Shown here in pieces: positions 1-5,814 of a stretch of DNA of 30,932 nucleotides (the first letter of the stretch is position 1; every line of letters begins with the position of its first letter). The position numbers and the translations under genes are program-made. The DNA is from a virus (taxonomy: Duplodnaviria; Heunggongvirae; Uroviricota; Caudoviricetes), in the IMG/VR virus record IMGVR_UViG_2541047956_000008, positions 1 to 30,932 of that record; one strand, 5' to 3'. The notes under the pieces are model-generated. The model saw only the letters and a list, made by a program, of their open reading frames with translations, was not told the origin of the DNA and searched no databases.

Positions 1-420
1 ATGACGGATTATCAGCCATACAGGAAAGGAACTGTGCTTGCCCCAACTGGGCCATGCAATCATCTTCATGTGATTTGTAATGATCCTGTTTATTACCCCG
101 TTAACGATTGTTATTGTGTTTTAGTTGTTAATATTTCTAGTATCAAGGATGGGGTCCCCCACGATCCGTCTTGCGTCTTGAATTCCGGTGATCATCGCTT
201 TATCAAGCATCCAAGTTATGTTGTTTACGCTGAAGCTATAATTTGGCGAGTGGATAACATGGTTAGAAAGCAGCGATCGGGTGAGATTTCTGTTCATGAT
301 GATATGCCAGAAGCTACATTCAATAGAATTCTGGACGGTTTTGATATATCTGATGAAGTTACGCCAAAGAACCTTAAATTTAAAAATAAATATTGCGTAT
401 CATCTATTGATGATGAGTAA
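1..420 (+). CDS. Hypothetical protein (139 aa) in an AT-rich accessory cassette; may be 5'-truncated by the window edge
   Basis: ORF begins with ATG at position 1 and ends at 420. Region is visibly AT-richer than the prophage backbone. No family recognised. Confidence 0.35.
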   Translation: MTDYQPYRKGTVLAPTGPCNHLHVICNDPVYYPVNDCYCVLVVNISSIKDGVPHDPSCVLNSGDHRFIKHPSYVVYAEAIIWRVDNMVRKQRSGEISVHDDMPEATFNRILDGFDISDEVTPKNLKFKNKYCVSSIDDE

Positions 421-459
421 ACAACAGGAATTGTTTCGGTATAGCTTCTGGAGTTTTCT

Positions 460-633
460 ATGGAAGATCAAAAAGCAACCAAGCCACAGCTTAAGTTCGA
501 CACAATGAAAGCATTCGCAGGTATGGGTGCTGCTGTTGAAGTTCTGATGAAGGCTGCTCCTAATGCGTTCACTCACGCTACTGTCTCTGGTAAAGAGCAG
601 CAGGGTAAGCTTCGTCGTCGCAAAGCAGCATGA
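460..633 (+). CDS. Small hypothetical protein (57 aa) with basic C-terminus (KLRRRKAA)
   Basis: ATG at 460 preceded by GGAG (450-453, 6-nt spacer); TGA at 631-633; followed directly by terminator hairpin. Below the 60-aa cut-off of the supplied ORF track. Confidence 0.4.
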   Translation: MEDQKATKPQLKFDTMKAFAGMGAAVEVLMKAAPNAFTHATVSGKEQQGKLRRRKAA

Positions 634-652
634 TCATAGCTGGTGCTTTTTG

Positions 653-680
653 AAAACCCGCCTTTAGGCGGGTTTTTTCT
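653..680. terminator. Bidirectional rho-independent terminator between convergent genes
   Basis: Hairpin AAAACCCGCC-TTTA-GGCGGGTTTT followed by a T run on the + strand; the stem also ends in a U-tract when read on the - strand. Sits between the stop at 633 (+) and the stop at 681 (-). Confidence 0.6.
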
Positions 681-989
681 TTAGTGATGTTCTTTGCCCT
701 TCTGTTTGCTTGTTCTGACCTGTTCCCACTCGATACGTCCTTCTTCTCGTCTTTTGTCTATGTATTCCGCAAGATCCTGAATATTGATGCAACGTTTTGC
801 TTTTTGTGATGTGCCGATGCGATATGTTGGAACGGGCAACTTACAAGCGTTTGCTTTTGCTTCTGCCGTGGCTGGACTCATGCCAAAGTACTTTTGGCTA
901 ACTGCTGAGAGTTCAATGTTAGGGGTATTGAATTCAGCCATCAGTAAAAACAAGGTGTTCATAATTTTCTCCATCAAAACCGGCTGCAC
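681..989 (-). CDS. AlpA/PrtN-family DNA-binding protein (excisionase-like regulator)
   Basis: 102-aa ORF; sequence resembles the pyocin-activator PrtN / AlpA-type small HTH proteins (recalled). Last gene of the leftward early operon, the usual xis position. True start may be an internal Met. Confidence 0.5.
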   Translation of the reverse strand: MQPVLMEKIMNTLFLLMAEFNTPNIELSAVSQKYFGMSPATAEAKANACKLPVPTYRIGTSQKAKRCINIQDLAEYIDKRREEGRIEWEQVRTSKQKGKEHH

Positions 990-998
990 CCGGGAAAA

Positions 999-1574
999 TC
1001 ATAATTCTGTGCTGGTGGCAGGAATTAATTTCTGCCAGATAGCGGAAACATATTTTGCCTGATGACGGGCATCAACCAGGGCGTTGTGCCGTTCGCCATC
1101 GAAAGGCATGTCCATTTTGGGGTCGAATCCGATGGAACGCCCAAGCGTAACGATCGTGCGTACATCGTGGTCATTCCAGTATGCCCACGGGCAGATTTGT
1201 CCTGCTCGCTCATAAGCTCCACGTAAAATTACGTTGTCGAAGGTGGCTCCGTTACCCCAGACTTTTAAATATTTCGTATTGTCTGCGTGCCGGTTAATGA
1301 AATGATTTAGTTCTGAGAGAGCATCGCTGATCGACAAAGTATCATCAATACAGATTGCAGCTCGTGCTTCAGGGCTTTGTTTCAACCACCACAGGATGGT
1401 ATCGCCGTCAGGTGTAGCTCCTTGCCCCATAGCACTTTCCAGGCTAACAACCGTATAGAATTCTTGTCCGATGTCTCCGGTTTCTGGAGTGAAGAACACC
1501 GCGCCAATGGAAACGATCGGTGCATCCTTATTTTTCCCCATCGTCTCAAGGTCGATCATTAAGTTGTTCATCAC
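999..1574 (-). CDS. DEDDh-family (DnaQ-like) 3'-5' exonuclease
   Basis: 191-aa ORF with N-terminal MIDLETMG (Exo I D-x-E motif) and C-terminal HNALVDARHQAKY (Exo III H-x4-D motif). Confidence 0.7.
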   Translation of the reverse strand: MMNNLMIDLETMGKNKDAPIVSIGAVFFTPETGDIGQEFYTVVSLESAMGQGATPDGDTILWWLKQSPEARAAICIDDTLSISDALSELNHFINRHADNTKYLKVWGNGATFDNVILRGAYERAGQICPWAYWNDHDVRTIVTLGRSIGFDPKMDMPFDGERHNALVDARHQAKYVSAIWQKLIPATSTEL

Positions 1575-4740: not shown

Positions 4741-5026
4741 TTAGCCAGTTACGGCACCACACTTTGTCGCGGTTCCATAAATGCCCTCATCGTTGCACCC
4801 TGGTCTCTTCCCAGGCGTCAAACCGAATCGCCACGCTGGTTAGGCGTCTTATCAGCATCATCATTGACTTGCACATTCCGGCTACCTGGTTTGTTTGCCC
4901 GAGCAAGGAGTGGATTGTCCCCTTTAACGTCCCCAGACCGCTAACGACGCATGTGCCATACGCCGTGTTACAACCAAATTTTGTTAGTACCTTGTTTGTA
5001 GGTCTGGAAAGAAAGATAAAATGAAG

Positions 5027-5065
5027 TTGCGCATTATGCAAGTGTTTTTATTGCGAGATATGCAA
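5027..5065. promoter_or_regulatory. OL-like operator pair with probable PL promoter (leftward)
   Basis: Two 15-mers TTGCGcattaTGCAA (5027-5041) and TTGCGagataTGCAA (5051-5065) match the TTGCG-N5-(A/T)GCAA pattern also seen at OR (5835-5849). On the - strand TTGCAT-17-TATCTT-like hexamers overlap them. Confidence 0.45.
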
Positions 5066-5075
5066 TTTGGTGGGT

Positions 5076-5100
5076 AATGAAAAGCCACCTTCTGGTGGCT
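5076..5100 (-). terminator. Terminator downstream of the repressor gene (tIMM-like)
   Basis: - strand hairpin AGCCACC-AGAA-GGTGGCT followed by UUUUCAUU, 20 nt after the repressor stop codon. Confidence 0.5.
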
Positions 5101-5121
5101 AATTGATGTTGAGGTAGGGGG

Positions 5122-5814
5122 TTAATTGTGTCGCTTAAGGGTTTGTGACTGACTGATTAAGACCTTTCCAAAGACCATAAACCGATGTTCGTTTTCGCTG
5201 GTAATTCCCCATTCGCGGTAAATCTGATTATCAGAAATTACCAGCAGTTTATCAGGTATCATTTGCAGTCGTTTGACGTAAATTTTATCATCAAAACCAA
5301 ATACATATATACCATCCCCATCAAACTGATTGATACTGATATCAACGAAGATGAGATCTCCTGGCTCAATGGTTGGACACATACTGTCCCCACGAACGTT
5401 GATAACTTTAATGTGATTTGCTGGTCGTCCACCAAACATCGATACAGCATTATCAGTTCTGTATTCAATGGCATGAATCACATCAATGACATCACCGCCC
5501 TGGATAAGGCCATTTCCCGCACTGGCACTGACATCCAGCATTTCAATACGGAATACATCCTTCACCTGCGCAACATCCTCACTAATACTGTTTTTACATA
5601 CAGTATTACTTTTGAGGTCTGAGGTAAAGAGATCAGCAATATCAACACCTAAGCTCCTGGCAATATTACTCAGGGCTTGTTCAGTGAATTGTTTCTGCTT
5701 ACCTGTTTCGAGGCGCGAGATATTCGCCGCATCCACTCCTATTGCTTCAGCGAGATCGGCGATTTTCATGTTCTTCGCCTGGCGAAGTTGTCTGACTCGA
5801 TTTCCTATGTTCAT
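5122..5814 (-). CDS. CI-like prophage repressor (N-terminal XRE HTH, C-terminal S24 LexA-like peptidase domain)
   Basis: 230-aa ORF: N-terminal HTH (IADLAEAIGVDAANISRLETGK), C-terminal GDSM serine motif (VRGDSMCPTIEPGDLIFVD) and downstream Lys (YVKRL). Divergent from the Cro-like gene. Confidence 0.85.
   Translation of the reverse strand: MNIGNRVRQLRQAKNMKIADLAEAIGVDAANISRLETGKQKQFTEQALSNIARSLGVDIADLFTSDLKSNTVCKNSISEDVAQVKDVFRIEMLDVSASAGNGLIQGGDVIDVIHAIEYRTDNAVSMFGGRPANHIKVINVRGDSMCPTIEPGDLIFVDISINQFDGDGIYVFGFDDKIYVKRLQMIPDKLLVISDNQIYREWGITSENEHRFMVFGKVLISQSQTLKRHN

Follow-up and report, generated by a model that had tools for sequence, protein, structure and literature searches.

A predicted PanA/PanT toxin-antitoxin pair of cluster T6 at the attL edge of dusA-integrated Escherichia coli prophages

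The stretch of DNA analysed here, hereafter the window, comprises 30,932 nucleotides (nt) of the IMG/VR virus record IMGVR_UViG_2541047956_000008 (Caudoviricetes). Its first gene, on the + strand, encodes a protein of 139 amino acids (aa). Together with the Panacea domain protein encoded directly upstream in related records, this protein very probably forms a type II PanT/PanA toxin-antitoxin (TA) pair. The toxin, PanT, is assigned to cluster T6 and is predicted to adopt a MazF-like fold. PanA/PanT systems were defined, and their toxin clusters numbered, by Kurata et al. (2022, PNAS 119:e2102212119; PMC8832971).

A conserved gene neighbourhood links the 139-aa protein to the Panacea antitoxins. 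The loci compared comprise 32 that were fetched from GTDB species genomes, in addition to those found earlier. A Panacea-like open reading frame (ORF) was present directly before the PanT homologue in thirty-six out of the thirty-six loci with upstream DNA, mostly with an overlap of -4; two loci cut by contig ends are outside this count. The gaps between panA and panT in intact pairs range from -4 to +62 nt, in three proteobacterial classes, and the linkage with Panacea persists at 30-40% identity, in Alpha- and Betaproteobacteria. The divergence of PanA is correlated with that of PanT (Spearman 0.81, Pearson 0.93, n=30), and therefore the pair moves as a unit.

The placement in cluster T6 follows from comparison with published members. 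In Dataset S1, T6 toxins are described as 'hypothetical protein', with the antitoxin gene first, overlaps of -4/-1 and the HHpred label 'EndoA/PemK/MazF-family RNAses' (PMC8832971). Among the T6 members listed there are Pantoea septica LMG 5345 and Yersiniaceae bacterium 2016Iso4 (PMC8832971), and the overlaps measured here in both (loci L013 and L012, respectively) equal those published. The toxin of the latter, WP_101821906.1, is an exact accession in T6 and is 55% identical to the window protein. The validated T6 pair is PanA/PanT of Pseudomonas moraviensis (WP_083354365.1 / WP_083201923.1), whose PanT is toxic in E. coli, specifically inhibits protein synthesis, is neutralised by its cognate PanA and co-purifies with it (PMC8832971). 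This toxin was recovered in our search as P0363, with termini matching MPGNIL.../...IRQNNF from the published primers. It shares 43% identity with residues 8-127 of the window protein (E-value 6e-34) and retains H21, D55, C58, H65, S72, Y76, G113 and S117.

Annotation databases had little to offer on the 139-aa protein. No meaningful match was obtained in Pfam, NCBIfam or PADLOC, and PHROGs assigned the protein to phrog_19071, of unknown function. Matches of the ICMT and DapC models to this protein and to the 57-aa product of the following gene were far below the cut-offs and were discarded. Sixty-two close homologues were found in Enterobacterales, Vibrio, and Shewanella, all annotated as 'hypothetical', and a profile search of 1.84 billion cluster representatives retrieved 2,703 relatives at E-values up to 1e-3. 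Pseudomonas phage Sirocco (OR683410.1, locus L053:1486-1884) also possesses an unannotated PanT homologue of 132 aa, 48% identical to the window protein. The Sirocco record instead calls a 44-aa ORF on the opposite strand, and the upstream panA homologue is labelled 'hypothetical'.

The features at the left edge of the window are the following:

1-420, + strand: panT, toxin gene of the predicted PanA/PanT pair, cluster T6, MazF-like fold, 139 aa.
421-446: spacer limited to the PanAT-carrying lineage, with the recombination joint to the backbone at about 447-450.
449-452, + strand: GGAG Shine-Dalgarno of the 57-aa gene, 7 nt upstream of its ATG, as read from the sequence.
460-633, + strand: protein-coding 57-aa gene (phrog_2741), remnant of a 177-179-aa plus 57-aa module and outside the toxin-antitoxin pair.
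652-677, + strand: intrinsic terminator hairpin of the 57-aa gene, with an 11-bp stem, a 4-nt loop and a U-tract on the + strand.
681-989, - strand: gene of the PrtN family (pyocin-activator-like), final gene of the leftward early operon (PF11112, 4.1e-23).

The panT ORF starts with ATG, and bases 2-4 of the window (TGA) double as the stop codon of the upstream panA. The phage genomes Lys8385Vzw and SKA5 match window positions 1-1000 at 98.5-99.3% identity, and in both of them a 190-aa gene ends with an ATGA overlap onto window position 1. This gene abuts position 1 in every related record, and 100%-identical matches abutting panA were found in E. coli O121 RM8352 and TUM13754. Its 190-aa product, PanA, comprises a stand-alone Panacea domain followed by a C-terminal tail of about 50 aa, matches PF13274 (SocA/Panacea antitoxin domain, DUF4065) with 70.9 bits versus a cut-off of 25.7, and is named 'Panacea domain-containing protein' in RefSeq. 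Given the ATGA overlap, panA and panT are therefore expected to be co-transcribed and are probably translationally coupled.

The initial annotation had described a cassette of two genes, of 139 aa (1-420, +) and 57 aa (460-633, +), and had left room for an upstream continuation of the first ORF. Both ORFs were confirmed. The cassette has a third gene, the 190-aa Panacea gene, directly upstream, and the block is a mosaic of two modules. A continuation as the 3' part of a longer gene is ruled out by an in-frame stop 8 codons before the panT ATG, without a start codon between the two in related records. The region had also been described as AT-rich, which holds for positions 1-420, where GC is 38.8% (in the first percentile for windows of 420 bp; the whole window averages 50.9%), and not for the 57-aa gene, whose GC content of 48.3% is backbone-like. 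A second AT-rich stretch in the early region, at window positions 5001-5400 (39.8-40.5% GC), may be further acquired cargo.

RefSeq, through its genome annotation pipeline PGAP, begins the toxin gene at an internal GTG (window position 34), which results in a protein of 128 aa (WP_014640052.1, locus L040:5835-6221). This form is devoid of 11 N-terminal residues conserved family-wide (P6, K9, the invariant G10, and T11), and the GTG start also breaks the ATGA coupling to panA. The 139-aa form of PanT is the supported start.

The AlphaFold2 model of PanT, based on a 54-sequence alignment, has a predicted local distance difference test score (pLDDT) of 90.1 and a predicted template modelling score (pTM) of 0.84, and consists of a five-strand barrel followed by three helices. 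The 50 best Foldseek matches of the model in the PDB are all MazF, with weak E-values (best 3.7e-3). A fold search in BFVD gave 'PemK-like protein' and 'Endoribonuclease' as top matches, which are also weak. PanT is accordingly modelled with the SH3-like beta-barrel fold of MazF/Kid/CcdB, and the small beta-barrel (MazF/PemK/CcdB) that had been guessed by eye was correct as judged from the model and the Foldseek matches.

In the wide family, the near-invariant residues are H21, L22, D55, C58, G63, H65, F67, S72, Y76, G113, and S117. Among close relatives H21, H23, C26, D55, C58, and H65 are invariant, and potentially metal-binding or catalytic. At 25-40% identity H21, D55, C58, and H65 are still conserved in at least 90% of the wide family, whereas H23 and C26 are not. 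As read from the alignments, the H21/D55/C58/H65 set looks like a metal site or like a catalytic centre different from that of MazF. The catalytic pair of MazF consists of an Arg in the beta1-beta2 loop and a Thr/Ser. A non-significant hhalign register places H21/L22 facing MazF H28/R29, and S46/S47 facing T52/T53.

PanT would be an RNase as judged from its predicted fold and the translation block reported for the tested T6 member, and we favour this chemistry with modest confidence. A tentative and rather unlikely alternative is that T6 PanT has a MazF fold in which Arg/Thr are replaced by a His21/Asp55/Cys58/His65 centre, metal-dependent or His-/Cys-based, and hence a translation target or mechanism other than that of the MazF mRNA/rRNA/tRNA interferases; in that case the pair would represent an uncharacterised abortive-infection effector whose phage sensor is PanA. 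The same fold could also belong to a CcdB-like gyrase poison or to another toxin that is not an RNase, which for the 139-aa protein we regard as highly improbable.

Several results weigh against the assignment of the pair as PanA/PanT with a MazF-like toxin. No PF02452 (PemK) match was found in the window protein or in 134 diverse family members at E-values up to 0.1, the profile of the PanT family gave only chance-level matches (E above 0.3) among PDB sequences, and hhalign comparisons of the narrow and wide family alignments with E. coli MazF gave a probability below 1%. The relationship of PanT with MazF/PemK appears to be visible in the predicted structure only. The near-invariant residues of PanT also seem to differ from the Arg plus Thr/Ser pair of MazF, and at 43% identity to the tested member the function may have drifted. 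The panA gene lies outside the window, and we infer its presence in the source genome from relatives. The promoter scan upstream of panA gave a single 9/12 match, no better than shuffled controls. Finally, PADLOC-DB 2.0 contained no match for the 139-aa, 57-aa, 190-aa, or 177-aa protein (the last is described below).

The panT gene was detected in 208 out of 5,426 complete E. coli genomes (about 4%), always on the chromosome, and twelve out of twelve sampled E. coli matches abut a Panacea gene. Intact copies of both genes, with an identity of 99% or more, are present in 199 of the 208 genomes, which argues against an inactive or domesticated relic whose toxin folds without being toxic. The near-invariant residues of the family, all present in the window protein, and the co-divergence of the pair as a unit across three proteobacterial classes point in the same direction. 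A relic would be in line with the genome of E. coli JSMCR1, with a broken panA and no panT, and with the PanA-linked candidates of E. coli MOD1 and Salmonella phage Emek, which were 'not toxic' (PMC8832971). However, these two candidates belong to cluster T1, with overlaps of -20 and -62, and not to T6 (PMC8832971). They were rejected as members of the same family. We consider a relic very unlikely.

The conserved neighbour of the toxin is the Panacea gene and not the 57-aa gene, although panT and the 57-aa gene share a strand and a single closing terminator and are separated by 39 nt, as in a self-contained cassette of a toxin with a small antitoxin or partner. Of the 36 PanAT loci, 34 have no 57-aa homologue, and the homologue is present solely in the E. 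coli phage loci of that set. Conversely, the 57-aa gene occurs without the toxin in about 450 complete E. coli genomes, in phage mEp460, and in Salmonella, Enterobacter, and Franconibacter, always after a gene of 177-179 aa, and the homology between the two types of carriers starts only at the ribosome-binding site of the 57-aa gene. A two-gene toxin and partner cassette is therefore extremely unlikely. The initial annotation had named a toxin plus small partner among its possibilities; the toxin stands, as a T6 PanT by homology, and the 57-aa partner does not.

The 57-aa protein was assigned to phrog_2741 (1.5e-35), and nothing meaningful was found for it in Pfam, NCBIfam, or PADLOC. Its AlphaFold model (pLDDT 60) has one short helix and no usable fold. 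The homologues are confined to Enterobacteriaceae and are always about 57 aa long. The gene is under purifying selection, with a ratio of nonsynonymous to synonymous substitution rates (dN/dS) of 0.07-0.28 at dS of about 0.5, and is therefore a real gene.

The E. coli genomes without PanAT, including O157:H7, match only from window position 447-450 (query 1248-1251) onward and possess the 57-aa gene, the terminator, and prtN; the matches of mEp460 begin at window position 447. In the alignment the homology starts at the Shine-Dalgarno of the 57-aa gene, which is kept as GGAG/GAGG in six out of six aligned carriers. In these genomes, mEp460, and Salmonella, the same dusA attL position is occupied, ahead of the 57-aa gene, by the gene of a 177-aa protein (phrog_4350). 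This protein had no match in Pfam, NCBIfam, or PADLOC. In prophages of Franconibacter and Enterobacter, the 177/179-aa plus 57-aa pair is located at the Q-lysis accessory-gene position, flanked by the Q antiterminator and the lysis genes. Two unrelated modules make up the three-gene block of panA, panT and the 57-aa gene, a mosaic with its joint near window position 447. The most parsimonious interpretation has panA-panT taking the place of the 177-aa gene, with the 57-aa gene and its terminator remaining as survivors. Transcripts reading through from panAT probably account for expression of the 57-aa gene in this lineage.

The 177-179-aa plus 57-aa pair is itself conserved and mobile, its two genes lying about 190 nt apart and followed by their own terminator, at two distinct prophage positions (L003:3284-4187, mEp460 gp23-gp24; L041:3281-4184; L043/L045:2780-3674). 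This pair may constitute an independent accessory or defence module.

The hairpin at 652-677 is G+C-rich and, compared with shuffled controls, stable on the + strand (-19.6 kcal/mol, z -3.2) and on the - strand (-18.1 kcal/mol, z -4.1). The + strand has a proper U-tract, UUUUUUCUUU, whereas the - strand has UUUUC only, and the terminator scan flagged the + strand only. The bidirectional terminator proposed initially thus holds for the hairpin, and not for the U-tract. Every carrier of the 57-aa gene keeps the stem and varies in the loop, also where the pair lies between Q and the lysis genes, and the hairpin is found 3' of this gene even in prophages without any convergent gene at that point. 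Because the hairpin follows the 57-aa gene in all contexts, it is the gene's own terminator. It probably also stops leftward transcription after prtN, more weakly on that strand. The convergence of the + strand genes on an excisionase-like gene on the - strand was confirmed, as the gene at 681-989 is of the PrtN type (PF11112) and the PrtN-family gene of mEp460 is annotated as excisionase. An Rfam scan of the whole window matched no family.

In E. coli O103 RM8385 the gene order is zur, a DUF2713 gene, a truncated dusA' fragment, panA, panT, the 57-aa gene, the convergent prtN, an exonuclease gene, and the rest of the early-left operon. The product of dusA is a tRNA-dihydrouridine synthase. 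A lambdoid prophage that integrates in dusA thus begins, inside attL, with the cassette. T6 pairs also adjoin integrases in elements of Vibrio, Shewanella, and Yersinia, and a position at the attL edge or on the integrase side is typical of accessory, defence, or addiction cargo. The attL-proximal slot of the dusA-integrating lambdoid prophages is a swap site, with PanAT in about 205 genomes or the 177-aa plus 57-aa pair in about 450.

At the same dusA site, E. coli JSMCR1 (locus L042:4295-4790) possesses a decayed cassette, with panA in two fragments and panT missing, followed by a glycosyltransferase gene, phage remnants, and an IS4 fragment. This genome shows erosion of the slot in degraded prophages. 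In phage Lys8385Vzw, the early-region gene Lys8385Vzw_33 (L001:6571-7137) is of the DUF551 type and is named DUF551 domain-containing protein in RefSeq (L040:7372-7938); its GenBank name, 'valyl-tRNA synthetase', is very probably a misannotation.

In the proposed mechanism, the AT-rich pair is cargo that directly follows attL in a lambdoid prophage in dusA, and would be co-transcribed via the ATGA overlap, probably with translational coupling. By analogy with the T6 member of P. moraviensis, free PanT would arrest growth through a block of protein synthesis, most likely acting as an endoribonuclease, and would be neutralised by PanA through direct binding; from that member we infer the toxicity of this PanT, its sequestration by PanA, and the translation block. 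The role would most plausibly be abortive infection or exclusion directed against other phages, or that of an addiction module stabilising the prophage. These roles are proposed because of the genomic position and the general hypothesis of PanA as a 'sensor' (PMC10440598).

The T6 family was already published in 2022, as were its antitoxin, the predicted fold, and one member's toxicity, and the literature found on the family consists only of two Atkinson/Hauryliuk papers. New here is the E. coli prophage PanAT pair, whose toxin is a 'hypothetical protein' in RefSeq and is placed in T6 by sequence comparison. This provides a name and a testable function for a protein encoded in about 200 complete E. 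coli genomes and several phage records, with O103, O121, and avian pathogenic E. coli (APEC) strains among the carriers. It also flags the conserved His/Asp/Cys/His set on a predicted MazF scaffold. The published family is extended to a common E. coli prophage, and the current understanding is not overturned.

Similar to the P. moraviensis T6 pair, the window pair has a toxin of the same family, the order antitoxin-toxin, and a -4/-1 overlap. The antitoxin is, as in the published T6 pairs, a stand-alone Panacea protein ('noNTD'), with the N-terminus MFCEEKVAQ versus MIFSEQKVAQ in the paper. In contrast, the window pair is prophage-borne, whereas the tested P. moraviensis pair is flagged 'NotPhage' (PMC8832971). 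The E. coli prophage pair is also absent from the examined part of the dataset, in which E. coli is represented by T1 and T3 pairs only. Compared with MazF/Kid (PemK, PF02452), the predicted PanT possesses two extra C-terminal helices (H104-116 and H122-131), conserves H21/D55/C58/H65 instead of Arg/Thr, and has a Panacea protein as antitoxin instead of MazE/Kis. SocAB of Caulobacter crescentus is a type VI TA system, and SocA is the founding Panacea protein. SocA shares the antitoxin domain PF13274 with PanA, although the NCBIfam equivalog model of SocA gives 14.4 bits on the 190-aa PanA, far below its cut-off of 190. The toxin SocB (cluster T10) is unrelated and acts by blocking the replication clamp; SocA is a ClpXP adaptor and does not act by simple sequestration (PMC8832971). 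Similar to mEp460 gp23-gp24, the window harbours the 57-aa gene with its terminator, both 97-98% identical to gp24 and its terminator; however, the window lineage lacks the 177-aa gene and possesses PanA/PanT in that place.
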